DNA of 64,000 nt. Origin: Promethearchaeota archaeon (GTDB lineage: Archaea; Asgardarchaeota; Lokiarchaeia; Sigyniarchaeales; SOKP01). This document shows positions 9,892 through 41,364 of this stretch, piece by piece. The DNA lies in contig JAHPZJ010000014.1 in the NCBI GenBank assembly GCA_019058245.1, positions 32,001-96,000 of the forward strand, written 5' to 3'. The position numbers were made by a program, and so were the translations under genes. Numbering within the stretch: position 1 is the stretch's first letter; the number at the start of each line of letters is the position of its first letter. Below the pieces are notes generated by a model. That model was not told the DNA's origin and searched no databases. It saw only the letters and a program-made list of their open reading frames with translations.

Positions 9892-11091
9892 ATGAGTAAA
9901 AAATGCCAAATATTCATAATCAAAACATCTCCCAAAACTGTTCTTGAAGATTATAGTAAATTAATGCATTTATCTAAGTATCAAGAGCATTTTCCTAAAG
10001 TTCTTAAAACAATTATTAAACTTAATCTTAGTTGGTCGAAATTCTACCCTTCATGTTCTAGCCCTCCATGGCAAGTAGAAGGCGTTCTTAAAACCATGAT
10101 TGAGGATGGCTTTGATCCTCGTAACCTTTTTACAGCTGAAAACCGTACTGTTGTAACCAATATTTCAAAAGGAATTACTCAAAATCGCTGGAGTCCAATC
10201 ATTAAAAAATATGGTGCTTGGTTTGTGCCTTTAACAAAAGTTCCTTTTATTTCATATAATGATGATTTAAGATCAAAATTTGAGACCATAAGAGATAGAG
10301 AATTGCATGTATTAGATTCAAAAATTTTTCCAAATGGATTTAGCATACCTAAATTTTATTTAGGAAAGCCTATAATTCATCTACCAACCATGAAAACACA
10401 TGGACATACTGGTTCTGCTGGCGGATCATTAAAAAACACAAAAGATGAGGCGAAAAATGGAGGAATTACATGCGCTATGAAAAATGCTTTTGGAGGATTG
10501 TTAACCAAACGAAGACATTTTTCTCACCAATATATGAGTGAGGTACTAGTTGATTTACTGATAATCCAAAAACAGATACATCCTGAGATAATGTCAATTG
10601 TAGATGGAACAGTTTGTGGTGATGGTGCGGGTCCGAGAACCATGATACCACGGATTAAAAATTATTTACTTGCGGGCTATGACCAAGTGGCGGTAGATAC
10701 TGTTGTTGCAAAAATGTTAGGTTTTGAACCTTTAAAACTGCCTGCTATAAAAATTGCTCACGACGAAGGTTTAGGATGTGGAGATTTTGATCAAATTGAA
10801 ATTGTAGGGGAAGATATATCACATGTTGACTGGAAATTTAGAGTAAAAAGAAGTCTAGTAATTTGGGGTGATCAAATGGTAAGAAAAGGAAAACTCTCTT
10901 TTTTACATCCATTATTCCATAATAAAGTATTTATGGCGTTGCCCATTTTAAGTTCATTAATTTATCATGATATGTTTTGGTATCCTACAGTAGGTAAAAA
11001 AAGAATAAAAGAGTTTATGAAAACTGAATGGGGAAAAATGTTTGAAAATTACCCAGCTGAATCGTCAGGCACAATAAATAAATATAATTAA
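9892..11091 (+). CDS. DUF362 domain protein
   Basis: IKLNL, LPTMKTH, TCAMKNAFG, DG…GAGP, DQVAVD motifs. Confidence 0.8.
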   Translation: MSKKCQIFIIKTSPKTVLEDYSKLMHLSKYQEHFPKVLKTIIKLNLSWSKFYPSCSSPPWQVEGVLKTMIEDGFDPRNLFTAENRTVVTNISKGITQNRWSPIIKKYGAWFVPLTKVPFISYNDDLRSKFETIRDRELHVLDSKIFPNGFSIPKFYLGKPIIHLPTMKTHGHTGSAGGSLKNTKDEAKNGGITCAMKNAFGGLLTKRRHFSHQYMSEVLVDLLIIQKQIHPEIMSIVDGTVCGDGAGPRTMIPRIKNYLLAGYDQVAVDTVVAKMLGFEPLKLPAIKIAHDEGLGCGDFDQIEIVGEDISHVDWKFRVKRSLVIWGDQMVRKGKLSFLHPLFHNKVFMALPILSSLIYHDMFWYPTVGKKRIKEFMKTEWGKMFENYPAESSGTINKYN

Positions 11092-11870
11092 ATGATCTCT
11101 TTTAATATTTCTTCATAATCAAATTTCCCACTAATTCTATTAATTTTATAATAAATTATAAATTCAATGGAACCTCCTTTCCCTAAAATTGGAGATTTTA
11201 TTATTCCATATGGAAATATATCGTTTTTAATACTCCATTCTATCAATTCTTTTAATATATTACACATAATTTTTGATTCTCGAATAATTTTAAATTTCTT
11301 TTCTTTATGAAAATGATTCTCAAAAATAGGTTTTATTAACGCAATTATTACACCATCTGTTTTTACTAATTTTTTTACATTTGGAAGGATTTCTCTTAAG
11401 GAGGTGAAAGTAACATCAATTGTACAAATATCAACTTTTTCTTCTAATTCTATCAGATTACGGGCATCAATACCTAGCATTGGAATAACTTTTTTTCTCA
11501 TCTTTTCACATCTCAGTAAAGGATGCAATACATCAATAGCTTTGTCTATTGCATATACTTTAGAGGCTCCATGTTTTATTAAACAATCTGTAAAGCCTCC
11601 TACGGATGCACCAATATCTAAACATACTTCATCTTCAACTGAAATCGAAAAAATGTTTAACACAGCTTCCAATTTCAGACCACCCCGTCCGACATATGGA
11701 AACTCTTTTAACATTTGAATTTCATGAGAACGGTCGATTCTTTTTCCAGGTTTTATTACCTTCTTTCCATTAATAATTATATAACCATTCAAAATTAACC
11801 ATTGCGCTTTTGTTCTACTTTCTACCAAGCCTCTTTCTACTAGTAGAATATCAATCCGTTCTTTCATCAA
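11088..11870 (-). CDS. tlyA: TlyA-family rRNA 2'-O-methyltransferase (S4 + FtsJ-like domains)
   Basis: RIDILLVERGLVESRTKA S4 domain, YVGRGGLKL, LDIGASVGGFTD, LIKP.FE. Confidence 0.88.
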   Translation of the reverse strand: MMKERIDILLVERGLVESRTKAQWLILNGYIIINGKKVIKPGKRIDRSHEIQMLKEFPYVGRGGLKLEAVLNIFSISVEDEVCLDIGASVGGFTDCLIKHGASKVYAIDKAIDVLHPLLRCEKMRKKVIPMLGIDARNLIELEEKVDICTIDVTFTSLREILPNVKKLVKTDGVIIALIKPIFENHFHKEKKFKIIRESKIMCNILKELIEWSIKNDIFPYGIIKSPILGKGGSIEFIIYYKINRISGKFDYEEILKEII

Positions 11871-27152: not shown

Positions 27153-27728
27153 ATGGCTCCAGAAGAAAAATTTGATGAAAAAAAATCTGAAGAAAAGGAA
27201 GAAACGTTAAATAATGATTTAGAAAAAGACTCAAATTCAGAGAAAGGCACTGAAACTGAATCTGAAACAGAATCAACAGAAGTATTAGAAGAAGAACGAG
27301 AATTAGACACAGAAGCAGAGTTAGATAGACTAAGATTCAAATATAGAGGGCATACCATTGATGAATTGAAGAAAATGAATATGGATCAATTCATACAATT
27401 ATTACCAGCCAGAGCCAGACGCTCATTAAAACGAGGCTTACCTCCTAGACAAAAAAAATTACTAGAAAGACTAAGACACGCATATCGTGCTAAAAAAAGA
27501 GGCAAGGATTTAACTACTAGAACACATGTGAGAGATATGATCATATTTCCTGAAATGGTTGGTCTCAAAATTGGTGTTTACAATGGTCGAATTTTTGAAA
27601 TTGTTGATATAAGACCAGAAATGATTGGACATTATTTAGGAGAATTCTCTCTTACAAGGAAAAGAGTACAACACGGTTCTCCCGGAATTGGAGCCACAAG
27701 AAGTTCAAAATATGTTCCGTTAAAATGA
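27153..27728 (+). CDS. rps19: 30S ribosomal protein uS19 with an acidic N-terminal extension
   Basis: [43 protein letters not shown]. Confidence 0.96.
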
Positions 27729-27748
27729 TAATATAATAAACAAGTTGA

Positions 27749-28234
27749 TTGAAATTGCCTAATTGGGGTTATTCTTTTACAGAAGAGAAATATGATGCAG
27801 ATAGATTAGCAAAGGCATCGGGTAGAGATATTAGAATTAAACCAAAACATGCAAGAGAAATATGTGCTGTAATTAAAGGTATGAAAGTAGAACAAGCAAA
27901 ATCATACTTAGAGAAAGTAATCAGCTTAAAACAATCAGTACCTTTTAGAAGGCATAAGAAAAAAGTGGCGCATAGACATGATTTGAAACAATTTAAATGG
28001 TATGCTGGACGATATCCTCAAAAAGCAGCGGCCAGAATATTTGAAATTCTTACATCTGTTGAATCCAACGCAGAATATAAAGGTTTAGATATTGATTTAT
28101 GTAGGATTATCCATTCTGCAACGCATAGAGGTAGAATAATAAAAAGAAATATTCCTAGAGCACATGGTCGTAGCACAGCTAGAAATAAACATCTCTCACA
28201 TATAGAAATTATAATTTATGAGTTCCCTAGTTAG
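27749..28234 (+). CDS. rpl22: 50S ribosomal protein uL22
   Basis: KHAREIC, VPFRRH, GRYPQKAA, PRAHGR; TTG start (27749 or 27755). Confidence 0.96.
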   Translation: MKLPNWGYSFTEEKYDADRLAKASGRDIRIKPKHAREICAVIKGMKVEQAKSYLEKVISLKQSVPFRRHKKKVAHRHDLKQFKWYAGRYPQKAAARIFEILTSVESNAEYKGLDIDLCRIIHSATHRGRIIKRNIPRAHGRSTARNKHLSHIEIIIYEFPS

Positions 28235-28284
28235 GTTAATTTATAATAGATTTAAAAGTATATTTTTAAAGATTTTGAAATAAA

Positions 28285-29076
28285 ATGAGTCCACTAGTAA
28301 AAAACTTTATTGAACAAGGGATTAAGTTGATGCAAATAAATGAATATTTGCGTTCAGAGCTAGTTCGTGCTGGATTTGCCGGAGTTGAATTACAACGTAC
28401 ACCACTAGGGGTACGAATAACGTTAAAAACGAGTCGTCCTGGATTAGTCATTGGAAAAGGTGGAAAGAGAATTCAAGAAATAACAGATGTTCTACAAGAT
28501 AGATTCGGCCTAGAGATGCCTCAGATTGAAGTTGAAGAAGTCACAGAGCCAGATCTTGATGCTCAGATTATGGCAGAAAGATTAGCTTATTCATTAGATA
28601 GGGGACGACATTATAGACGAGCGGGTTATTACATACTCAGAAAGGTAATGGATGCTGGGGCTCGCGGTGTAGAAATTATTATTTCAGGTAAAGTAACTTC
28701 CCAACGTGCTCGAGTTCAAATCTTTAGAGCTGGAACTATGTCCAAAAGTGGTCAAACTGCTCAAGAAGGTGTGGATAAGGGTGTTGCACAATGTATTCAG
28801 AAATCTGGAGTGCTAGGTATAATTGTAAAAATCATGCGAGCTAATACTAAAATGGGTGATGACATTAAAATTAGGGAAAATCTTTTAGCTAAAGCCCAAG
28901 CAGAAGAAGAAGCAAAATTAGCAAAGACACGAGCAGATTATATAATAGAAGAAGAAGAGGGTATTTTAAGTAAAGAGGAAAAAAAATTGCTTGATGAAGT
29001 AGATGAGGAGGATACATCTGAAATCTCATTAAATTCTGATAAAGAAATCGAAAAATTAGAATCAGATGAAGAATAA
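28285..29076 (+). CDS. rps3: 30S ribosomal protein uS3
   Basis: RPGLVIGKGGKRI KH motif, GARGVEIIISGK; acidic C-terminal tail. Confidence 0.96.
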   Translation: MSPLVKNFIEQGIKLMQINEYLRSELVRAGFAGVELQRTPLGVRITLKTSRPGLVIGKGGKRIQEITDVLQDRFGLEMPQIEVEEVTEPDLDAQIMAERLAYSLDRGRHYRRAGYYILRKVMDAGARGVEIIISGKVTSQRARVQIFRAGTMSKSGQTAQEGVDKGVAQCIQKSGVLGIIVKIMRANTKMGDDIKIRENLLAKAQAEEEAKLAKTRADYIIEEEEGILSKEEKKLLDEVDEEDTSEISLNSDKEIEKLESDEE

Positions 29077-29107
29077 CTAGTATATGATTAATAAAGAGTG
29101 ATAAGGA

Positions 29108-29308
29108 ATGGATATTATTACAGCCAAAAAAATCCGAGAAATGGATGATAGAGAAAGAGAAAGAACGTTAATGAATTTAAGAGAAGAATTGATGATGCTC
29201 TACTCAATGCAAACTGGTGGTGGACTTGCTGATAACCCTGCTAAAGCAAAATTATTAAAAAAACAAATAGCGAGAGTATTAACAGTAATAAATGAAGAGG
29301 AACGATGA
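29108..29308 (+). CDS. rpl29: 50S ribosomal protein uL29
   Basis: IREM…LREEL…NP..KKQIARVLTV; operon position. Confidence 0.93.
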   Translation: MDIITAKKIREMDDRERERTLMNLREELMMLYSMQTGGGLADNPAKAKLLKKQIARVLTVINEEER

Positions 29309-29619
29309 TCGATCCAAAATATTTAATATATCATGACTTAATAGGGTTTTCTGCCTATATTAAGCCCAAATCAAAATTAAAAGACAGGGTTTTCTTAGAT
29401 ATAGGTGTTGTAATTAATGATACAAAAAATATGCTAATTACTGAAAAAAATAACAAAATTAAAAAATATATCAAAAAAGATAATATCTTTCGATTTAAGA
29501 TACCTAACTACAAAAGTGAAGAAGAAGAATACTATTTAGAAGTTCAAGGGAATAAAATTGTTGGGTCTCCTATAAATAGATTAAGAAGTTTAAAGAAAAA
29601 GAGATGGTTAAAAACATGA
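29305..29619 (+). CDS. rnp1: Ribonuclease P protein component 1 (Rpp29/Pop4)
   Basis: HDLIG, GVVINDTKNML, G..IVG.P..RL; canonical position before rps17. Confidence 0.85.
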   Translation: MIDPKYLIYHDLIGFSAYIKPKSKLKDRVFLDIGVVINDTKNMLITEKNNKIKKYIKKDNIFRFKIPNYKSEEEEYYLEVQGNKIVGSPINRLRSLKKKRWLKT

Positions 29620-29969
29620 GTGACAATATTGGTATTCCTGGTGTGGTTCCTCCAAAGATCAAACCTGGAGAATGCAAAGATCTTTCTTGCCCTTTTCATG
29701 GTAAAACAAGAATTAGGGGAAAAATTACTCAAGGAATCGTAGTAAGTAAAAAATCAAAAAATACCATCATTATAAGACGTGATTATGTTCAATTTGTTAA
29801 AAAATATCAAAGATATGAACGTCGTAATACACGCTTAGCATGTCATTTAACAGATTGTTTAAGTCATGAAATTCAAATTGGAGATTTAGTAAGAGTTGGT
29901 GAATCTAGAAAGATTTCGAAAACAAAAGCTTTTATCGTGTTAGAAAAAATTTCGAGTAAGGTGGATTAA
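29616..29969 (+). CDS. rps17: 30S ribosomal protein uS17
   Basis: C.D..CPFHG, KYQRYERR, ISKTKAF; ATGA overlap with rnp1. Confidence 0.95.
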   Translation: MSDNIGIPGVVPPKIKPGECKDLSCPFHGKTRIRGKITQGIVVSKKSKNTIIIRRDYVQFVKKYQRYERRNTRLACHLTDCLSHEIQIGDLVRVGESRKISKTKAFIVLEKISSKVD

Positions 29970-30395
29970 ATGGGAACTAGAAGAAAATTGGGACGAAAAA
30001 CATATTCTAAACCTCGTACCAGCTATGGATTATGCAATGGATCTAAAATAAATATTGCTGATAATTCTGGAGCTAAAATAGCTCAAATAATTAATGTAGA
30101 CAGTTTCAAGACGAGATTGAGAAGATTACCAAAAGCCTCTGTTGGAAGTGTATGCACTGTAACAATAAAAAAAGGAAAACCTGAATTAAGAGGAAATGTA
30201 GTAAAAGCTGTAATTGTTAGACAGAAAATGATTTATAGACGTATAGATGGAACTAGATTATGTTTTGAAGATAATGCGGGTGTCATTGTCACCAAGGAAG
30301 GTGAACCTAAAGCTACAGAGATAAGAGGGCCTATTGCCCGAGAGGCAGCTGAAATGTTTCCAAGATTGGCATCAATTTCATCATTAATAATTTAA
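29970..30395 (+). CDS. rpl14: 50S ribosomal protein uL14
   Basis: ADNSGAK, KKGKPELR, FEDNAGVIV, GPIAREAA. Confidence 0.96.
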   Translation: MGTRRKLGRKTYSKPRTSYGLCNGSKINIADNSGAKIAQIINVDSFKTRLRRLPKASVGSVCTVTIKKGKPELRGNVVKAVIVRQKMIYRRIDGTRLCFEDNAGVIVTKEGEPKATEIRGPIAREAAEMFPRLASISSLII

Positions 30396-30409
30396 TCAAA
30401 GGTGTAAAA

Positions 30410-30838
30410 ATGAAAGTAAAATCAAAACAACCAAGAAAGCAAAGAAAGGCACTGTATAGTTACAAAAATCATCAACGGTCAAAATTACTGAGCACAAGGG
30501 TAGCAGATTTTCTTCGAGATGAATATGGAATAAAAAAACTTCCTCTCAGAGTTGGAGATCAAGTTCGAGTATGCAGAGGCGAATTTAGGGATTTTGAGGG
30601 TGAAGTAATTGAAGTAACCAATAATTTAAGATGTAAAATTAAAGAGTGTACATTTGAAAAAACAGATGGAACTCAATTTAATCCTGCTATTCATATTTCA
30701 AATTTAGTGATAACTAAATTTACTAAAGAAAAAAAAATGGATCCATGGCGAGCTAATATGATTGAAAGAAAAGCAATATATGGATTTTATGAAGAGGAAT
30801 TAAAAGCGCCAAAGAAGGAAAAAGAGGTGGAAAAATAA
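30410..30838 (+). CDS. rpl24: 50S ribosomal protein uL24
   Basis: SKQPRKQRK, GDQVRVCRG KOW motif, IHISNLVIT. Confidence 0.95.
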   Translation: MKVKSKQPRKQRKALYSYKNHQRSKLLSTRVADFLRDEYGIKKLPLRVGDQVRVCRGEFRDFEGEVIEVTNNLRCKIKECTFEKTDGTQFNPAIHISNLVITKFTKEKKMDPWRANMIERKAIYGFYEEELKAPKKEKEVEK

Positions 30839-30841
30839 AAA

Positions 30842-31588
30842 ATGACGAGACATGGAGGTCAAAAAACGTTAAAAAGACTAAATACACCCGTTTTCTTACA
30901 AATTAAAAGAAAACATGGTACATTTTTTGTTAAACCAGCTGCAGGTCCACATCCTAGCAGATTTTGTTTACCACTTCTACATATTATTAGAGACATTCTC
31001 AAGATTGTTGAAAATCATAACGAAGCAAAAAAATTAATTGTAGCAGGACAGTTTAAAGTTGATGGAAAAGTAGTGAGAGATAAAGCTTATCCCCTAGGTC
31101 TAATGGATGTATTATCCATCAAAAAATTAAATAAACATTATAGAATATTACCAGATTCTCATCATGGATTAATTCTACATGAGATTTCTGAACAAGAGAG
31201 TGTTTTCAAATTGTGCAGGATAAATAATAAAAAAACTGTAAAGAGAGGACATATACAGTTAAATCTGCATGATGGAAGAAATATCTTGATTAAAATTAAT
31301 GATCCCAGAAATCCAAAAGAAGACACATATCAACGTATGGATGTCTTAAAGATTTCAATCCCAGATCAAGAGATTCTTAAAGTTTTAAGGTTTAAGGAAA
31401 ATAATAATGCAATTATTATGTCTGGAAAAAATATTGGTCAAGTTGGAAAAATTATATCCATTTTGAAAAGATTTGGACCAAAGGCTAGTACAGTTTCAAT
31501 TCAACATAACGGAAGTCATACTGAAACTCTATATGATTATACGTTTGTTTTAGGAGAAGACCAACTAGAAATTTCAATACCAGAATGA
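30842..31588 (+). CDS. rps4e: 30S ribosomal protein eS4; last ~15 codons probably supplied by the integrated island
   Basis: GPH, VDGKVVRD..YPLGLMDV, QLNLHDGRN, GKNIG; a second copy of the C-terminus lies at 36211-36288. Confidence 0.96.
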   Translation: MTRHGGQKTLKRLNTPVFLQIKRKHGTFFVKPAAGPHPSRFCLPLLHIIRDILKIVENHNEAKKLIVAGQFKVDGKVVRDKAYPLGLMDVLSIKKLNKHYRILPDSHHGLILHEISEQESVFKLCRINNKKTVKRGHIQLNLHDGRNILIKINDPRNPKEDTYQRMDVLKISIPDQEILKVLRFKENNNAIIMSGKNIGQVGKIISILKRFGPKASTVSIQHNGSHTETLYDYTFVLGEDQLEISIPE

Positions 31589-31685
31589 ATATATAAGAAT
31601 CAAAAGAATTTTAATTATTTATACAAATAAAAATATTTAATTTCCCTCCTAATAGGAATAACAAAAATATTTTTCCTATATTGCT

Positions 31686-31794
31686 TAAAAATATTAAAGT
31701 TATTTGAGGTAAACTAAAGGTTTATTATTAACCTAAAACTTATTATAGCATAATAATGAAATAAGGGAGGGCATTCCCAAAATCTATTCGAATT
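31686..31794 (+). repeat. Left copy of a 109-bp inverted repeat
   Basis: 104/109 identical to the reverse complement of 34432-34540 by manual alignment. Confidence 0.92.
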
Positions 31795-31851
31795 TTTACA
31801 GATATAGTATATTTATTCAACAAATTAATATTAATTTATGATAATTTCAAG

Positions 31852-33087
31852 ATGAATCATCAAAAAATAGGCAAATTAATTAATTATTCAAATAAAACCA
31901 TTGAGATTGAAAATAGTAACCGTATTGCTATTGTTAAGGTTAAGGATTATAATCCTGAAAATGTTCGAAGTGGATTATTAAGAATCATAGAATTGTTAAA
32001 ACCATCTTTTTTTGACGATGATTTGATTCATAAATCTGTATTACTAAAGCCAAATGTGCTAGCACCTGATAAAATGGCATTTACAAACGAAAATGTGGTA
32101 GAACAATTAGCTGAAATATTAAAAAAGCAGGGTGTAAAAAAGCTTCTTATCGGAGATAGTACAATGACAAAATTAATAACAAAGATGGCTCATAGAAAAT
32201 CAGGATTGGCAGATATAGCTGAAAAACTTGGAGAAAAAATGATAAATTTTCTGGAAGATGAATTTGTTACAATATCACACGATTCATTCAGAGTATCTAA
32301 AGTGATTAGAATTCCTAAGACAGTTTTTAATGCAGATATTATAATTAATTTACCAAAAATGAAGACTCATGCAGGATATGTCTTTACTGGGGCTATCAAG
32401 AACTTTTTCGGATTAATGGAAGATAAAATATCAATGCATAAAATTTACAAGGATAAACTCTTGTTTCAAAGAATGCTGGGAGATATTCACCAAGCAGTTT
32501 TATGTTGCGGAGAAAAAGAACGTATAAAACCAGTTTTACATATAATGGATGCCATAGAAGCTATGGAGGGGAAAGGTCCTAGAAGCGGTAAACATAAAAA
32601 ATATAATTGTTTAATAGGTTCATTCTCCCCTGTCGCTCTTGATGCATTAGCTTTTTCATTAATGGGAGGTAATCCAGAAGATCTAGAAGCTCTCAAATCT
32701 TTGTCCGAGACAAATTTATGGGAAAGGAATGTAAATAGATTAGAAGTAATAGGAGATAATTGGGAAGATTTTAAAGATAATGCCCAGATACCTCCTTTAG
32801 AAACTCTTAATTCCATAAGAACAGGAGGATCCTTAATTGAACGATTTGCTGTACCTCTTATTAGATCATTCCATCCAAGAATAAAAATAAATTCTAAAAA
32901 GTGTAAATTATGTATGAATTGTATATCTCATTGTCCAATGCAAGCATTGTATTTTGATGAAAATAAAAATAAAATTAAAGTTAATCGCTCAAAATGCATT
33001 AATTGTTTTTGCTGTGGAGAAATTTGTCCAAATAATGCTGTACAGCAAAAAAGACCAATATCGAAATTTATTCCATTAATTAAATAG
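31852..33087 (+). CDS. DUF362 protein with a C-terminal 2x[4Fe-4S] ferredoxin domain
   Basis: VLLKPN, INLPKMKTH, TGAIKNFFG, MEGKGP, CKLCMNCISHCP / CINCFCCGEICP. Confidence 0.85.
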   Translation: MNHQKIGKLINYSNKTIEIENSNRIAIVKVKDYNPENVRSGLLRIIELLKPSFFDDDLIHKSVLLKPNVLAPDKMAFTNENVVEQLAEILKKQGVKKLLIGDSTMTKLITKMAHRKSGLADIAEKLGEKMINFLEDEFVTISHDSFRVSKVIRIPKTVFNADIIINLPKMKTHAGYVFTGAIKNFFGLMEDKISMHKIYKDKLLFQRMLGDIHQAVLCCGEKERIKPVLHIMDAIEAMEGKGPRSGKHKKYNCLIGSFSPVALDALAFSLMGGNPEDLEALKSLSETNLWERNVNRLEVIGDNWEDFKDNAQIPPLETLNSIRTGGSLIERFAVPLIRSFHPRIKINSKKCKLCMNCISHCPMQALYFDENKNKIKVNRSKCINCFCCGEICPNNAVQQKRPISKFIPLIK

Positions 33088-33124
33088 AGTCTAAAAAGAA
33101 TATATTAAAAAATTCTTTTGATTA

Positions 33125-34276
33125 TTATGCTAACACAGTTTTTAGTTTTAGCCTTTCTTGTACTCCAGGGATTTCATAATCCCATTTTTCTATAGTAAAA
33201 CTCCAATTATATTTAATTTTTTCAATTATCTCTTTTGTAAATTTATAGTTATTCTTCTTATAACCTTGAATTGATCTTAAATATTTTTTGAGTTTAGGTT
33301 TTACCGTGTCAAATCCATTAAGATTAAACTGAGTATATATGCGATTTAATTCATATATGGGGTTTTCTTCAAGGTTTTCAAACCTTATTTCAATTAGATT
33401 CCTTTTAGGAATCAAACTCTTATTTTGAAAGTAATCTGTCATCATTTTTTTATAGATATTAAAGATATATTTTTCTATTTCCTCATCTGATAATTTTTGG
33501 AGCATGAAAATCTGAATTGCTTTTTTATAAAAATTCTTTGTGGAAAAAAAAACAGTATAAGGATTTCGATAGATATGAATAAATTTTGCTGTAGGAAATA
33601 TTTTTAATAGAATCTTAATTCGGGATGTATTTACTGGACTTTTGAGAATCAATTGTTTCCCTCTCCAATAGTAAGTTATTTTCTTTAATAGAAAAAGATA
33701 TTTTTGTTTCCATAAATTTATTTCTTTTTTTGAAAAATCTTTAAATCGAATAAAATGATCATATTGTTTTGACAATCCTTTTGGCAAGTACCAACCATTA
33801 TAAAAAGAGTATGGAATAAGGTTTCCTAAAGCCATCTCTTCTTCAGTTGGGGAATACACTCTAAGTTCCATATTATCCATTGGTCGAATCTCTGGTAAAT
33901 ATCTCTTAAGAATTGTAAAACATAATTTATTGCTTAAAAATGATTTTGGAAAAGTTGCTTGAAGCATATCTATATATCCAAACTGAGAATCTTGACATAA
34001 TAAATTTTGAAGGTGAGTTGTGCCTGTTCTCCAATGACCTATAATAAATATTGGTGGTTTTGAAAAATTAATATTATTTAATATTTTTCGGTACCGTAAA
34101 GATTCATAGATTTCAAAGGGAGTAAAGATGGGTTTAATTAAATTAATTAAGAAAATTCTAGGGAAATAATACTTAAAATTCTTAATTCCCTCATTCAAAA
34201 ATAATTTCATCCAATTGTGAAAAGAGAGACCAATTGAAGGTCCTAATTTATTCATTATTTCATTAATTTTTGTCAT
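33125..34276 (-). CDS. Sulfotransferase family protein (Stf3 / omega-hydroxy-menaquinone sulfotransferase-like)
   Basis: PIFIIGHWRTGTTHL 5'-PSB loop, RPMDNM, LKSP, FIHIYRNPY…S 3'-PB motif. Confidence 0.85.
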   Translation of the reverse strand: MTKINEIMNKLGPSIGLSFHNWMKLFLNEGIKNFKYYFPRIFLINLIKPIFTPFEIYESLRYRKILNNINFSKPPIFIIGHWRTGTTHLQNLLCQDSQFGYIDMLQATFPKSFLSNKLCFTILKRYLPEIRPMDNMELRVYSPTEEEMALGNLIPYSFYNGWYLPKGLSKQYDHFIRFKDFSKKEINLWKQKYLFLLKKITYYWRGKQLILKSPVNTSRIKILLKIFPTAKFIHIYRNPYTVFFSTKNFYKKAIQIFMLQKLSDEEIEKYIFNIYKKMMTDYFQNKSLIPKRNLIEIRFENLEENPIYELNRIYTQFNLNGFDTVKPKLKKYLRSIQGYKKNNYKFTKEIIEKIKYNWSFTIEKWDYEIPGVQERLKLKTVLA

Positions 34277-34431
34277 TTTTTATACTAACTTCCCCCCCGA
34301 CCCATGAAAGTATATCGTTTTATTATTGACTGAAAATAAATTATGTAATCTATACAGAAACATTTTTGCATTACCTCAATATAAATAAAAATTATTAGGC
34401 GAATGTCTAAAAGTCTATAAATAATTATATT

Positions 34432-34540
34432 AATTTGAATAGATTTTGGGAATGCCCTCCCTTATTTCAATATTATGATATAATAAGTTTTAGGTTAATA
34501 ATAAACCTTTAGTTTATCTCAAATGACTTTAATATTTTTA
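34432..34540 (-). repeat. Right copy of the 109-bp inverted repeat
   Basis: Reverse complement matches 31686-31794 with 5 mismatches. Confidence 0.92.
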
Positions 34541-34761
34541 GGTAAAAAAATCCAAAACTGTATTATAATTTTAAAAAAAAAAGGGCTATAAATTTACTAA
34601 CTTCTAAATAAAAATTTACTATCTTTAATAGACTATTTCTATTTACTCAATTTTACAAAATATTAAATAAAACTTTTGTTATAATAATAGTAATTTCGAA
34701 TGAAATCCAAAGAATAAGATAAACTAATAATTAAAACTTTTAAAAAAATCCAAAATTAATA

Positions 34762-35655
34762 GTGAATGAAATGATTTTTCAAATAGCGGATTCCAGATAT
34801 CTTAACATGATACTTATTATTTTTGTTATTCTAGCATTTATTCTGGTTTTTTGGTGGAAATTAGGGAGATCCATAAAATTGGTGGAATTTCGTGTAATCG
34901 CTCTTTTTTTTCTCTCATTAGGAGTAATGATTGAGGTTGTTATGCTTGTAGATGTTTTAGGTTCTAATCCTCTTATACTCGCCATCGGTTATCCCCTTTC
35001 ATTTGCTTTTATTATTTATACGTCACTATTCATAACTAGAATTGTCTCACAGCAGCGAAAGAAAATAGAATCTAATTTAAAAGCAAGCTCTAAAGCATCG
35101 ATTAATGTAGCAAACATTGCAACCGAACTCGCTGCTAACGCAAATGAAGTTAATGCTGCAGCAGAGGAAATAGCCTCATCAACTCAACAAATAGTAAATG
35201 AGAGTAAAAAGATGACAGTTTCATCCAATGAAATTAAAAATATAATGGATATTATTATTAATATTGCTGAACAAACAAACCTTTTAGCATTAAATGCTAG
35301 TATTGAAGCAGGAAGGGCAGGTGAAAGTGGAAGAGGCTTTGGGGTCGTAGCAGATGAAGTAAGAAAACTCGCTGAGGAATCAAGAAAAGTTGTAAACCAA
35401 AGTGGAACTACAATAACCGATATTATAAATAAAATTCATATAATTACAAGTTCATTGGAAGAAATAAGTGTAGCAACACAACAACAAACTGAATCAATGG
35501 AACAAATATCTTCAACAGCGAATGATTTAGGAGAAATGGCAGAAAGATTAAAAGAAAGCTTTCTTAAAAATGTTGAAGAAATCAAGGAAAAAGAAAAGGA
35601 TTTGAAGACAGATTCTAATTCTATTTATCAAAAAAAAATCATTAAAATGAATTAA
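34762..35655 (+). CDS. Membrane-anchored methyl-accepting chemotaxis-like signalling domain protein
   Basis: 3 N-terminal TM helices; [38 protein letters not shown] hairpin tip. Confidence 0.9.
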
Positions 35656-36210
35656 CTATTGTTTTTTTTAAATATTTTAAATTTGTCGACCAAACTACTA
35701 AATTGAGTTAAAAAAAAGACCTCTTTTCATATTATTTAGCTTTTAAAAGTAGTTTTTACTTATCGATTTTGATTTAACAAAAGACAATTGAAAATATTTC
35801 AAGAAACTGGAAATTTTAACAAAAACAATAAAAAAACAATTAAGAATATAAAAAAGGAAGTTTATTTTAATTATCTTCCCTTCTAAGAGATATATTTTTT
35901 ATTATTTATCATAAAAAATAAATTAAAATAGGGAGGAAAAAACTTGTGAGCATATTAAATTTAGAGTTAAATGGAATATTATTGTTTAAATATCCTATTT
36001 TTTGATTCTAAATCTCATTCTATTATAATAGAGGCCTTGTTATACATCCTAATTTATTATATAGTAAAAAGAAACGGTTACCAAGTATTCTTTGTAATAA
36101 TTTAAAAAAATTAATTAAACATGCTGAATTTTTTATCATTACATATTGAGTAGATTAAGAATAACATATTCAAATTATAAAATATAACTTAGGATTTTTG
36201 GTGTAGTAGC

Positions 36211-36288
36211 ATGGAAACGTTATATGATTATACCTTCTTTGTAGGCAAAGAAAATTCTGAAATAGATATTCCAAAGTTAGAACGTTAA
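36211..36288 (+). pseudogene. Orphan 3' fragment of rps4e (METLYDYTFFVGKENSEIDIPKLER*), probably the displaced original C-terminus
   Basis: Aligns with the rps4e end ETLYDYTFVLGEDQLEISIPE*; stops 30 bp before the rpl5 ATG. Confidence 0.8.
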
Positions 36289-36318
36289 TAAATAATGTAC
36301 AGAATGATGTGAAAAAAA

Positions 36319-36912
36319 ATGTCAAGTAAATCAAAAACGAAAATTTCATCGACTCTTTCAAAAGAATTTGAAGAAAAATGGAAAAACCCTATGAAAAAAC
36401 CATATCTAGAAAAGCTAGTTCTAAATATTGGTGTTGGTCTTGGGGGAGAAGAATTAGAAAAAGCAGTAAACGTTTTAGAAACGATTACAGGTCAAAAGGC
36501 AATTAAGACTAAATCAAAAACAAATGTGAAAGAATTTAATTTAAGAAAAGGACGACCTATAGGTACGAAACTTACTATTAGGGGTCAAGATGCTGAAAAA
36601 TTACTTAAAAGATTATTAATTGTTAATAATAATAAAATATTAAGAAAAAGTTTTGATAATTATGGTAATTTTGGTTTTGGAATAACTGAACATATCTCTA
36701 TCCCTGGTATTGAGTATGATAATGAAATTGGGATATGGGGTTTGGATTGTGTAGGACGAGTAGTTAGACCTGGAATGAGAGTAAAATCTAGACGAAAAGC
36801 TCGAACAAAAGTTCCAAAACATCATTATGTACAACGAGGAGAAACCCAATATTTTTTAAAACAAAAGTTTGGAGTTGAAATTGTAGAAAAATTAGAATTA
36901 GATTATTTTTAA
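36319..36912 (+). CDS. rpl5: 50S ribosomal protein uL5
   Basis: NPM, KLVLNIGVG, IGTKLTIRG, GNFGFGITEHI, RPGMRV. Confidence 0.96.
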   Translation: MSSKSKTKISSTLSKEFEEKWKNPMKKPYLEKLVLNIGVGLGGEELEKAVNVLETITGQKAIKTKSKTNVKEFNLRKGRPIGTKLTIRGQDAEKLLKRLLIVNNNKILRKSFDNYGNFGFGITEHISIPGIEYDNEIGIWGLDCVGRVVRPGMRVKSRRKARTKVPKHHYVQRGETQYFLKQKFGVEIVEKLELDYF

Positions 36913-36931
36913 TATGTTTAGGTGAAAAAAG

Positions 36932-37081
36932 ATACCACAAGGCAAACATTACGGCAAAGGCCAGAGAGAATGTAGAAGATGTCATACTCATAGAGGAGTA
37001 ATACGACGTTATGGATTATATATATGTAGACGATGTTTTTATGAAATTGGGAAAGATATTGGATTTAAAAGATTTGAATAA
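36932..37081 (+). CDS. rps14: 30S ribosomal protein uS14 (zinc-binding), missed by the ORF track; probable ATA start
   Basis: (M)[48 protein letters not shown]; SD AGGTGA at 36920-36925; position between rpl5 and rps8. Confidence 0.93.
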
Positions 37082-37108
37082 ATATTAGAAAAAAGAGAGT
37101 GAATATCC

Positions 37109-37492
37109 ATGACAAATACCATAGCAGATGCATGTTGCGCCCTCAAAAATGCAGAAAGAGCACGCAAAAAGGAAGTTATAATTAGCCCTGCTTCTAAGGT
37201 CCTCCAACAGATTCTTCGAATATTCCAAAGACAAGCATATATTGGAGAATTCGAAAGATATGATGATGGAAGGCAAGGTAAATTTAAGATAGCATTATTA
37301 GGTAAAATGAATGAATGTTCAGGATTAATGAGACTAAATTATAAAGTATCTCAATTTGAAATGTTAGAAAGAAAATTATTACCCGCACCGGGATTAGGGA
37401 TAATAATCCTCACCACAAATCAAGGTATAATGACAATGAGTGAGGCAGAAGAAAACCACATTGGTGGACATACTTTATGTTATATTTATTAA
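37109..37492 (+). CDS. rps8: 30S ribosomal protein uS8
   Basis: NAERARK, YIGEFE..DDGRQGK, LLPA..G.IILTT.QGIM. Confidence 0.96.
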   Translation: MTNTIADACCALKNAERARKKEVIISPASKVLQQILRIFQRQAYIGEFERYDDGRQGKFKIALLGKMNECSGLMRLNYKVSQFEMLERKLLPAPGLGIIILTTNQGIMTMSEAEENHIGGHTLCYIY

Positions 37493-37514
37493 TCTATTAC
37501 GAGGAAAATATCAA

Positions 37515-38093
37515 ATGGTAAAAATTGCGTTCTTCAAAGAAGAATTGGAAATCCCTGCTGATGTTAAAGTGACATTAGAAGGAGGACATCATATTCGAAT
37601 TAAAGGTTCAAATGGTAATATAACAAAAGATTTCTCACATATTAGAGGTATAAAGGTTTCAGTTGAGAAAAATAAAATTATTTTTATAACTAACTTTCCC
37701 AAAAGTGGTACATTAGCTTTAATTAAAACTGTTGTCAGCATTATTAATAATTTAATTATCGGTGTTCAAACAAATTACAAATACGTATCTAAAATTTGTT
37801 ATTCACATTTTCCTTGTAATTGCGAAGTAAAATCTGATAAGAAAGAGATTCATGTAGTTAATTTCTTAGGAGAAAGAGCCCCTAGGAAAGCAAAATATCC
37901 TGATAATGTAAAAGTTGAAGTAAAGGGGGATGATGTATATTTTATTGGACCAGATAAAGAAGCATTAGGTCAAACAGCCGCTAATGTTAAAAGAGCTTGT
38001 CGTATTCGGAAAAAAGATCCTCGAGTTTTTCAAGATGGTGTCTATTTATACAAAAAAATGATTGGAGATGAAACCATCTGGGAAATCACCTAA
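37515..38093 (+). CDS. rpl6: 50S ribosomal protein uL6
   Basis: YSHFP, NFLGERAPR, GQTAAN, KDPRVFQDGVY; start corrected to MVKIAFF. Confidence 0.95.
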   Translation: MVKIAFFKEELEIPADVKVTLEGGHHIRIKGSNGNITKDFSHIRGIKVSVEKNKIIFITNFPKSGTLALIKTVVSIINNLIIGVQTNYKYVSKICYSHFPCNCEVKSDKKEIHVVNFLGERAPRKAKYPDNVKVEVKGDDVYFIGPDKEALGQTAANVKRACRIRKKDPRVFQDGVYLYKKMIGDETIWEIT

Positions 38094-38108
38094 AGTAAGG
38101 TAATTATT

Positions 38109-38630
38109 ATGATACAAGATAAAAGATTATTAGAACTGCGGAAAAAAATAAATAAAACACGACCTTCATTTCGACGGGTAGAATCGTGGCGATATAAGAG
38201 AGTTAAAGATTCATGGCGGAAAGCTCGAGGCATTGACTCAAAAACAAGAAAAAAAAAGAAGTCCGGTGTTAAATCCCCCTCAGTTGGATATAGATCACCA
38301 AAGAAAGTAAGAGGTTTGCATCCTTCAGGGTATATAGAAGCAAGGATTATAACAATCCAAGATTTAGAAAATCTTAACAAAAATAAACATGCTGTCAAAA
38401 TCTCAAGTAAATTGGGTTCAAAAAAACGAATAGCCCTTATTGATTTTTGTCAAAAAAGGGGCTTTAAAGTATTAAATCTTGGTATTTCTCAAAAAGAAAT
38501 TGAGAGTTTAGAGGCACTCGCAGAAGCTCCTTTATATGAGGAGATGGAAGATGAAGAATTTTTAGATAATGATGATTTAGAAGAATCTCTTGAAATAGAT
38601 GATAAAAATGCCAAAAAAAAGAGGCGGTGA
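38109..38630 (+). CDS. rpl32e: 50S ribosomal protein eL32 with an acidic C-terminal extension
   Basis: PSFRR, WRKARGIDSK, GYRSP..VRGLHPSG. Confidence 0.95.
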   Translation: MIQDKRLLELRKKINKTRPSFRRVESWRYKRVKDSWRKARGIDSKTRKKKKSGVKSPSVGYRSPKKVRGLHPSGYIEARIITIQDLENLNKNKHAVKISSKLGSKKRIALIDFCQKRGFKVLNLGISQKEIESLEALAEAPLYEEMEDEEFLDNDDLEESLEIDDKNAKKKRR

Positions 38631-38636
38631 TAATAA

Positions 38637-39098
38637 ATGAATTTAAAACCACAAAAAAGAATGGCAGCAGAACTTCTAAAATGCGGAGAGAATAGAGTTT
38701 ATTTTGATCCTTATTTAATCGAAGATATTTCACTGGCAATAACTCGAGAAGATATTCGTAGTTTAATAAAGCAAGGTGTAATACAGAAAAAATATGAAAC
38801 AGGTATTTCAAATTACCGAAAAAATCAACGACATGAAAGGAAGAAGAAAGGAAGAGCTAGAGGATTAGGAAAGCGTAAAGGTACAAAGTATGCAAGAACA
38901 CCAAAAAAGAAAACCTGGATTAGACGAATACGTCCAATTAGACGAGAACTTAAAAAACTAAGGGACAGGAAATTAATTACTCCCGCTAATTATCGAAAAT
39001 TATATAAGAATGCTAAAGGTGGAATGTTTAATAGTATTGCTCAGTTAAATCGATATATTCGAGAAAAAGAATTAATAAGAAGAGGAAGAGGTCGGTAG
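38637..39098 (+). CDS. rpl19e: 50S ribosomal protein eL19
   Basis: QKRMAAELLKCGENRV, AITREDIR, G.RKGTKYAR, W..RIR. Confidence 0.96.
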   Translation: MNLKPQKRMAAELLKCGENRVYFDPYLIEDISLAITREDIRSLIKQGVIQKKYETGISNYRKNQRHERKKKGRARGLGKRKGTKYARTPKKKTWIRRIRPIRRELKKLRDRKLITPANYRKLYKNAKGGMFNSIAQLNRYIREKELIRRGRGR

Positions 39099-39100
39099 AA

Positions 39101-39694
39101 ATGGCTAAAGGTCCAAGGTATAGAAGATCATTTCGAAGGCGTCATGAGGGTAAAACGGATTTTCATAAAAGATTAAAATTGTTGAAATCAAGAAAACTAA
39201 GAATAGTTATTCGAGCTTCAAATAATCATGTGAGAGTTCAACTAGTTCAGTCCAAATTAGGTGGGGATAAAATTTTAATCTCAGCATTTTCGAAAGAATT
39301 AACCTCTAAATATGGATGGAATGTAAACACAGGAAATATTCCAGCTGCTTATTTAACCGGATATTTAGCAGGATTAAGGGCGAAAAAGCAAAATATTCAG
39401 GAAGGTATCTTTGATTTAGGCGTTTTCTACCATCGAAATCGAGTACTTGCTGCTTGTAAAGGATTAATAGATGCTGGAATTAATATTCCATATCGTGAAG
39501 AATTTTTTCCAGAAAGTTTAGAAGAGCGAATTAAAGGAATTCATATTGAAGATTATGCCAAGACTCTAAAATCAAATGCGCCAGAAATTTATGAACAACT
39601 TTTCTCAGGATATCTAAACAAGAATAAAATAAATCCAATGAAAATAAGTCAAATGATTACAGATTCATCAAAAAAAATAGAAAATCAAATTTAA
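39101..39694 (+). CDS. rpl18: 50S ribosomal protein uL18
   Basis: GPRY..FRRRHEGKTD, NIPAAYLTG, FDLG. Confidence 0.96.
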   Translation: MAKGPRYRRSFRRRHEGKTDFHKRLKLLKSRKLRIVIRASNNHVRVQLVQSKLGGDKILISAFSKELTSKYGWNVNTGNIPAAYLTGYLAGLRAKKQNIQEGIFDLGVFYHRNRVLAACKGLIDAGINIPYREEFFPESLEERIKGIHIEDYAKTLKSNAPEIYEQLFSGYLNKNKINPMKISQMITDSSKKIENQI

Positions 39695-39707
39695 AAATGT
39701 GAATTAA

Positions 39708-40322
39708 ATGAGTCGTTTAAGAAATATAGATGAAGAATGGACCCCAAAGACGCGTTTAGGCGAATTAGTTCAGCAAGGGCTCATGACATTAGATAAAATT
39801 TTTCAAAATAATTTAGTTGTAAAAGAAAAAGAAATAATTAATATATTACTCCCACAACTCAAAGAAGATGTAATAACAATACGTATGATACAAAAAATGA
39901 CCGCTAGTGGCCAGCGTAGCAGATTTAAAGCGGTAGTCATTGTAGGATCTGATGGCTTTCTAGGAGTAGGTGCGTCTAAAAGTAAAGAAGTCGGACCAGC
40001 CATTAGAAAAGCAATTGATAAAGCTAAACTTTCTGTTATTCCAATACTTAGAGGTTGTGGAAGTAAAGAATGTGGATGTGGAGGAACACATAGTATACCT
40101 TTTAAAATTAGAGGCAAATGTGGTTCAGTGAGAATCCAATTAATACCAGCACCTGCAGGAGTAGGACTAGCTTGTGCGGATAAAGTAAAACAAGTTCTAA
40201 AATTATGCGGAATTGAAGATGTGTGGAGTAAAACGTATGGTGATACAAGGACGAGTGAGAATCTAGTTAAAGCTACCTTTGATGCACTAAAAAATGCTCA
40301 TAAATTTAACTTCAATATATAA
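39708..40322 (+). CDS. rps5: 30S ribosomal protein uS5
   Basis: WTPKTRLG, GQRSRFKAVV, RGCGS.EC.CG..HS, LIPAPAG.GL. Confidence 0.96.
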   Translation: MSRLRNIDEEWTPKTRLGELVQQGLMTLDKIFQNNLVVKEKEIINILLPQLKEDVITIRMIQKMTASGQRSRFKAVVIVGSDGFLGVGASKSKEVGPAIRKAIDKAKLSVIPILRGCGSKECGCGGTHSIPFKIRGKCGSVRIQLIPAPAGVGLACADKVKQVLKLCGIEDVWSKTYGDTRTSENLVKATFDALKNAHKFNFNI

Positions 40323-40339
40323 AATAGAGTGGTGTAGGA

Positions 40340-40864
40340 ATGGCTATGGCAAAAAAAAAATCAAAATTGAAGGAAACAAATCTTACTCCAAAATTATATT
40401 TTGCAGTCCGTATTAGAGGTGCTCCTGGTATGAGGAGAAAAATATTGGATACATTAAAGATTCTTAGAATGCATAAAGTCAATCATGGGGTATTAATTTG
40501 GGGTACTCCTTCCTATAAAGGTATGCTTACAAAGTGTAAAGATTATATTGCTTATGGAGTAATTGATGAGAAGACTTTAGTAAGGTTACTAAGAGTTAGA
40601 GGAAGAGTAGAAGGTAACAAGATGCTTACTGAAGAATACATTAAGAAATTAACTGACTATAAAAGCTTTAAGGAATTAGCTAAAGCACTACTTAACGGAG
40701 AAATACAATATCGAGAAAAATATATCTATAAAATTAAACCAGTATTCCGATTGCATCCCCCAAGAAAAGGACATAGAGGTACTATTAAGAAACATTACAA
40801 TGAAGGAGGATCACTAGGGAATGTTGGTCTATATATAAATGAAATAATCTACAAAATGCTCTAA
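40340..40864 (+). CDS. rpl30: 50S ribosomal protein uL30
   Basis: AVRIRG, DYIAYG, FRLHPPRKG, GGSLG. Confidence 0.95.
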   Translation: MAMAKKKSKLKETNLTPKLYFAVRIRGAPGMRRKILDTLKILRMHKVNHGVLIWGTPSYKGMLTKCKDYIAYGVIDEKTLVRLLRVRGRVEGNKMLTEEYIKKLTDYKSFKELAKALLNGEIQYREKYIYKIKPVFRLHPPRKGHRGTIKKHYNEGGSLGNVGLYINEIIYKML

Positions 40865-40881
40865 CCTGAAGGTGAATTATT

Positions 40882-41364
40882 ATTACACGAAAATATCCTA
40901 AAAAAGTTCGAAGTATGAGAGGAAGACGTACTCACGGGTATGGGAGAGTAGGCCAGCATAGAAAAACTGGACAACGTGCGGGAAGAGGAAAAACTACTCA
41001 ATGGAAAAAAAGTAAAAAGACCTATTATTTAAAACAAAAAGAACTAGGGTTTCCAGATCCTGATTGGGATTTTGGAAAGAAGGGTTTTAAAAGACCGCAA
41101 GATATACTCCGAATTTATAAAGTTAATACAATAAATGTAAAAGACTTAGACCAAAAGATTGATAATCTCCTCATTGATAATAAAGCTACGAAATCTGGTA
41201 ATACTTATAGCATCAATATGGATGAAATTAATATTCAGAAACTATTAGGAAAAGGAGAAATTCATAAAGTAGTCAATGTAACCGTAAATAACGCATCGCA
41301 AAAAGCTGTTGAAAAAATAGAAGCTGCTGGTGGCAAAATTACACTACTTTCTCAAACAGAATAA
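40882..41364 (+). CDS. rpl15: 50S ribosomal protein uL15; probable ATT start upstream of the annotated ATG
   Basis: (M)TRKYPKKVRSMRGRRTHGYG…FGKKGF…KLLGKG…EKIEAAGG; SD GGTGA at 40871-40875; exact start uncertain (40879/40882/40915). Confidence 0.93.
   Translation: MTRKYPKKVRSMRGRRTHGYGRVGQHRKTGQRAGRGKTTQWKKSKKTYYLKQKELGFPDPDWDFGKKGFKRPQDILRIYKVNTINVKDLDQKIDNLLIDNKATKSGNTYSINMDEINIQKLLGKGEIHKVVNVTVNNASQKAVEKIEAAGGKITLLSQTE

Follow-up and report, generated by a model that had tools for sequence, protein, structure and literature searches.

An rps4e-targeting element family in Lokiarchaeia: a probable homing-element relic beside a replaced ribosomal protein gene end

Intron-free elements that enter an essential gene and bring a diverged 3' end with them are represented by the WHO elements of Torulaspora and Lachancea yeasts, which target FBA1. 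There, the old 3' end persists downstream as a fragment whose start lies close to one position, the 5' and 3' parts of the gene give discordant trees, and the nuclease gene and fragments decay (Coughlan et al. 2020, PMC7282813). Mobile endonuclease open reading frames (mORFs) of fungal mitochondria form hybrid genes in a similar way, at atp6 in Allomyces and at atp6, atp9, cox2 and nad3 in Glomus, with a foreign C-terminus, an endonuclease open reading frame (ORF) and a displaced native C-terminus closer to relatives than the inserted one (PMC3630166). Here, we describe an island with a comparable layout between two 3' ends of rps4e, the gene for ribosomal protein eS4, in a 64,000-nt stretch of a Promethearchaeota archaeon of the class Lokiarchaeia (contig JAHPZJ010000014.1, positions 32,001 to 96,000; hereafter the window, whose coordinates we use). 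We judge, with a probability of roughly 0.7, that this island is what remains of a homing element that lacks an intron and has rps4e as its target.

Three other kinds of element are comparable in part. The free-standing homing endonucleases of phage T4 (mobE and the seg genes) lack an intron or intein, lie beside a conserved gene and co-convert its flanks, but they are inserted between genes, duplicate no gene end and belong to the HNH or GIY-YIG families (PMC2790892). Integrative and conjugative elements and integrative and mobilizable elements (ICEs and IMEs) insert at the 3' ends of the ribosomal protein genes rplL, rpsI and rpmG and leave them working, but they do so with their own integrase and with direct repeats of 12-54 bp of the exact gene end (PMC4701971). 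Asgard elements (aloposons, HeimV1/V2, HeimM2 and Yucahu-i) are likewise integrated in Asgard hosts and carry cargo, but the portions of the two reports considered here place them at tRNA sites, rRNA-linked sites or an 11-bp att motif with an integrase, and mention neither an rps4e site nor gene-end replacement (PMC8813620, PMC11529989). No paper on an rps4e element was found in the literature searched, most subscription papers lying outside it, and both the target and the nuclease family described below appear to be undescribed.

The features at the rps4e end of the argument are as follows.
30842-31588, plus strand: rps4e (eS4), 248 aa, chimeric, Pfam S4e
31523-31588, plus strand: replacement 3' tail (codons 228-248), with the element signature at 31571-31582 and codon 245 as TCA
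35960-36203, no strand: conserved non-coding right end of the rps4e element family, with an invariant 23-mer at 36101-36123
36214-36288, plus strand: original host 3' end (codons 228-251), displaced and eroded, 90% nt identity to the relative G070, tree support 98/96
36319-36912, plus strand: rpl5 (uL5), the downstream host boundary, Pfam match, adjoining rps4e in 49 congeners

The window contains two eS4 tails. As the first-pass annotation had reported, the second lies 4691 bp downstream of the first and its stop is 30 bp ahead of rpl5; it is also the sole other match when the whole genome is searched with the eS4 tail (tblastn, E 3e-4). The copies are identical at 42 of 63 nt and do share the 13-bp stretch pointed out there. 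The description of their differences as largely synonymous or conservative holds only in part, as codon 236 of the displaced tail encodes F, a residue seen in 0/99 host alleles, which fits decay of the displaced copy. The two-tail arrangement is real and correctly assembled.

The downstream tail carries the marks of the host. Each of the 49 other genomes of the genus in which both genes are present has rpl5 immediately after rps4e (seen in sequence for 29, judged from coordinates for 20), congener eS4 proteins are nearly all 250-252 aa, and both the length of the displaced end and its spacing to rpl5 are host-type. Against the nearest relative, G070, nucleotide identity is 90% for the downstream tail, 73% for the upstream tail and 85-93% for the gene body; the displaced end is therefore closer to the relative than the inserted end is, as in WHO- and mORF-type elements. 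The tree pairs the downstream tail with G070 (support 98/96). Given the G070 match, the tree and the rps4e-rpl5 adjacency in congeners, the downstream tail is the displaced host end, as first proposed. A side observation concerns this stub: an in-frame ATG at 36211 opens a 25-codon ORF (36211-36288) ending 30 bp before rpl5, which could preserve translational coupling to rpl5; the in-frame start is not conserved in the metagenome loci L115 or L145.

The same arrangement recurs in relatives. A tail profile run over 154 genomes of the order found second tail copies in four other Lokiarchaeia (G110, G112, G129 and G130), and 80 metagenome loci were included as well. In all four genomes, a 247-aa rps4e is followed about 56-60 bp on by a convergent gene (669 aa where complete), and in G110, G112 and G129 a displaced fragment from about codon 164-166 sits before rpl5. 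In G130, one contig has an empty allele and another an occupied one; the two agree at 90-96% ahead of codon 166 and at 72-75% beyond it. In G129, two contigs overlapping by 141 bp bound the element at 38 kb. Among the metagenome loci, L091 and L115 have a split rps4e plus the 669-aa gene, and a decay series runs from L115 (4.8 kb, intact gene) through L145 (3.1 kb, truncated gene) to L158 (gene remnant, no displaced fragment found); L182 may be its last stage. The host sequence of L115 is of the type of the window's genus.

Family members span 3-38 kb and have one layout: a replacement 3' end starting at about codon 162-167, the convergent 669-aa gene, variable cargo, a conserved right end of ~250 bp, and the displaced host 3' end. 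The duplicated part reaches 250 bp and is about 30% diverged. Breakpoints cluster at codons 164-167 across two genera, and the junctions are ragged; the stretch shared at codon 166 is 5-8 bp, the longest identical one being the 8 bp of G110 and G129.

One member also records how its flanks were acquired. Host alleles form two clades, about 80% alike, and G112, which belongs to one of them, holds codons ~96-165, displaced codons 166-195 and 557 bp at the right end from the other. This mosaic reads as co-conversion on both flanks, in one clear case; such two-sided co-conversion is predicted by the WHO model (PMC7282813) and is not produced by site-specific integration. Separately, codons 211-240 of the working rps4e of G110 (L077, L076) are 91% like its own displaced copy, which suggests that gene conversion has taken place between them.

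The 669-aa gene is the only gene common to elements of 3 to 38 kb, always at the replacement end. Its product has six helical repeats of ~65 aa, a helix-turn-helix (HTH), and a C-terminal domain in which E, D and K residues are invariant. For the model of the C-terminal domain (predicted local distance difference test 91), nearly all top structural matches have the restriction-endonuclease fold (PD-(D/E)XK; Z 4-6), and the full-length model gave HTH-type structural matches only. These models indicate that the gene probably encodes a nuclease, and the repeat array suggests a long, modular recognition site. The nuclease domain is present in 63 of 161 genomes of the class and usually abuts a housekeeping gene, as the T4 free-standing endonucleases do. 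An integrase function for the gene was considered and rejected, as Pfam, PDB-sequence and Foldseek searches give it no support.

The predicted nuclease sets the family apart from the systems that it resembles most. WHO proteins are intein-derived LAGLIDADG-zinc-finger fusions for which cleavage was shown (PMC7282813), whereas the rps4e element has a convergent gene for helical repeats and a PD-(D/E)XK-like domain, with cleavage predicted from sequence and model; Pfam matched no WHO-type LAGLIDADG-zinc-finger in the 669-aa protein, the predicted fold differs, and the target is rps4e, not FBA1. The rps4e element also differs from WHO in its archaeal host, ribosomal protein target, cargo up to 38 kb and conserved non-coding right end. 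The fungal mORFs are LAGLIDADG or GIY-YIG, about 1 kb and organellar, with no large cargo described there (PMC3630166). The rps4e element most likely works like the WHO and fungal mORF homing elements and is a member of neither.

The window's island carries two parts of this family. Its right end (35960-36203) matches, at 76-81% identity, the DNA that immediately precedes the displaced fragment in L115, L145 and G110 (E to 1e-40), and matches in part in G129, G112, L127 and L135; its 23-mer has just three occurrences in GTDB contigs, each in a right end of this kind, and is absent from viral contigs. At the other end, codons 167-227 of the working gene group with G070 and codons 228-247 with element tails, the chimera being host-type up to about codon 227-234 and element-type over its last ~15-20 codons. 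Codon 245 is TCA in the window and in 8/8 nuclease-linked alleles, and TCN is found in 0/99 host alleles; the window tail also groups with element tails in the tree (support 88/87). A foreign tail that is simply another genus' normal allele was rejected, the signature motif being present in 0/40 alleles from other genera and families. From codon 245 and the tail tree, the upstream tail of the working rps4e is foreign and element-derived, in line with the earlier proposal; the swap itself is probably small and neutral for the ribosome. A further site in this tail is D232 (31535-31537), which is invariant in the 99 host alleles and is E or S in 6 of the 10 replacement alleles (two of the ten, L181 and L182, being classed by layout rather than by the nuclease gene); codon 232 is possibly a second recoded nuclease site, close to the start of the window stub.

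Because it shares the right end and has the element-type tail, we place the island in the rps4e family as a nuclease-less relic. The nuclease gene and displaced codons 166-227 have been lost and working-gene codons 167-227 are host-type; no match to the 669-aa gene was found in the source genome (76% complete) or between the tails. We infer that the middle section became host-type again, either by gene conversion in place or because a later crossover fell within the conserved codons 228-234; the 13-bp region may mark a late homologous crossover. Other roles for the right end were also considered. A structured RNA was rejected, the consensus fold being weak (-6.5 kcal/mol). For an outward rpl5 promoter, a seeded TATA matrix found no match, although the same matrix scored the rps19 upstream region poorly, and a sigma-70 scan of the right end stayed at chance level.

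In the homing model, an intact element would consist of the replacement 3' third of rps4e, the convergent site-specific nuclease gene, cargo, the right end and the displaced host 3' end. The nuclease would cut empty rps4e alleles near codons 162-175, and repair from the occupied allele by homologous recombination would copy the element in. eS4 would stay whole through the diverged, presumably cut-resistant 3' end, and loss of the nuclease gene and of displaced codons 166-227 would lead to the late decay stage of the window. The lpdA locus of the source genome speaks for homing, since it has the same architecture with a convergent 1335-aa ORF. With somewhat less assurance, though still on balance, we favor the wider claim that an undescribed Lokiarchaeia homing nuclease family (helical repeats plus a PD-(D/E)XK-like domain) swaps the rps4e 3' third, crosses species with co-conversion and brings as much as 38 kb of cargo to the S10-spc operon without an integrase, the window being a late decay stage.

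Several results weigh against this account. Structural Z values are modest (4-6), no Pfam family matches the 669-aa gene, and both nuclease activity and target are predictions. A displaced fragment is present at only 2 of 20 other nuclease-family members beside housekeeping genes. The grouping of the window tail reaches only 88/87, on a long branch and 60 columns, and the host-type codons 167-227 require one extra recombination step. The 8-bp stretch at codon 166 (G110, G129) could be a recombinase overlap, and the source genome has other gene-end duplications without any nuclease.

These further duplications lie at lpdA, a GH57 gene, a 497-aa gene and a 352-aa gene. At lpdA (L316:576-6850; G000:C6:129575-135820), a 176-nt 3' end is duplicated, and the convergent 1335-aa acidic ORF has a winged HTH and two HNH-like motifs, the latter read by eye and unconfirmed by Pfam; lpdA relatives resemble one tail or the other, which suggests repeated swaps. 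lpdA is the sole one of these duplications with a convergent giant ORF. At G000:C14:115937-129820, C28:232700-243936 and C26:55449-57207, the duplicated 3' ends are 137, 620 and 190 nt, with cargo blocks of 12.6, 9 and 0.5 kb in which no nuclease was seen.

Such duplications bear on the rival that survives best, in which the same family spreads by nuclease-independent homologous or homology-facilitated recombination, with incoming DNA anchored in rps4e and the 669-aa gene a passenger. Co-conversion would fit any homologous recombination, and both the window and several of the source genome's gene-end duplications are without a nuclease. However, the nuclease gene is the sole gene shared by elements of 3-38 kb and keeps its place at the replacement end, the breakpoints of two genera cluster at codons 164-167, and replacement alleles differ systematically just past the break. 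We consider this rival unlikely.

Still less probable is integration at an att core in rps4e by a tyrosine or serine recombinase supplied in trans, which is close to what the first-pass annotation had in mind when it read the locus as attL/attR and the 13-bp stretch as the core. The geometry is gene-restoring, streptococcal ICEs use the 3' ends of rplL, rpsI and rpmG (PMC4701971), two members have 8 identical bp at codon 166, and the host genomes carry one or two tyrosine recombinases, located outside the elements. However, the 13-mer is ordinary conserved coding sequence, present in 41 of 99 host alleles, and the relatives break near codons 162-167 with ragged junctions of at most 8 identical bp and with flanks co-converted, unlike site-specific integration. 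No tyrosine or serine recombinase was found on element contigs or among the 28 ORFs of the bounded elements G129, L115 and L145 (PF00589, PF07508 and a Pfam scan of the 28 ORFs). PHROGs gave these ORFs weak 'DNA transposition protein' and DprA-like matches, taken for ATPase and SLOG domains but unconfirmed. An empty-site or circle joint was absent from four contig sets, although contigs drop rare variants. Hence, of the choice first offered between a decayed island and one mobilized in trans, decay is supported and the trans integrase is not; the absence of an integrase ORF between the tails was read correctly, and the suspected mobile family exists as an rps4e-targeting family of Lokiarchaeia, the att site being unsupported. 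Comparison with related Lokiarchaeia, suggested at the same time, bore fruit (rps4e and rpl5 adjoining in the 49 congeners, variable cargo in members, no tyrosine recombinase found in the elements); the search of viral contigs for eS4 tail fragments found no relative.

That a misassembly or strain chimera produced the arrangement is hardly credible: unitigs do break within the island, but only at its internal 109-bp inverted repeat, and the right end is homologous to elements of other genomes. The junction check raised with the first reading came out clean, as the left junction (to 31739) and the right one (34487-37171 and 34487-36806) are each contained in one unitig of even depth in runs X1 and X4, which may themselves be the source of the window DNA. 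Marsh run X10, from another study, spans the right junction (36071-36267) with 4 differences.

The homing account, if correct, would provide archaea with a counterpart of WHO-type gene drive; a specific enzyme and a predicted target confined to about codons 162-175 of rps4e make the claim testable in vitro. By homing, kilobases of cargo could also enter a conserved operon without an integrase. eS4 is a common phylogenomic marker, and its 3' third, in occupied genomes, does not share the history of the rest of the gene.

Between the tails lie the cargo genes and the repeat noted above.
31686-31794, plus strand: inverted repeat left arm, 109 bp, with a TATA-like motif, upstream of DUF362 (motif score 13.9, seeded matrix)
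31852-33087, plus strand: DUF362 and 4Fe-4S dicluster protein (411 aa), Pfam, 78% aa to a G065 gene at an unrelated locus
33125-34276, minus strand: sulfotransferase (383 aa), Pfam, 80% aa to G065, beside DUF362 there too
34432-34540, minus strand: inverted repeat right arm, upstream of the sulfotransferase, 95% to the left arm
34762-35655, plus strand: membrane MCP-signal-domain protein (297 aa), Pfam, 82% nt to G065

Pfam confirms the cargo first named, a DUF362-ferredoxin, a sulfotransferase and an MCP-like sensor. The DUF362-sulfotransferase pair and the MCP gene are 82% nt identical to a cluster that G065, another species, carries at an unrelated locus, and in most congeners searched no close orthologues turned up; because of both, the cargo was probably captured and has no part in mobility. 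The 109-bp repeat has only two copies in the genome, and its arms bracket the convergent DUF362-sulfotransferase pair. In G065, the pair is reversed relative to the MCP gene and seems to be flanked by a different, direct repeat. The cassette is possibly invertible.

Cargo elsewhere in the family is varied. L091:688-7656 strings together genes of housekeeping type that are short or partial (PfkB, V-ATPase C, a thiamine pyrophosphate enzyme, a cation ATPase and a piece of phosphoenolpyruvate carboxylase), and the decayed element of L158 contains an AbrB/MazE-like and PIN toxin-antitoxin pair (10575-11376). G110 has a second insertion of 9.9 kb, in rps8 (G110:C109:27050-36960; L076, L104), which leaves the first 25 codons upstream and has a full rps8 following a 1360-aa ORF, a 5'-end replacement; a HerA/VirB4-like ATPase and an M50-like peptidase are among its cargo. 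Finally, the ribosomal cluster of the window (27153-41364) runs from uS19 to uL15, and uS19, uS3 and eL32 have acidic extensions, as they do in relatives.

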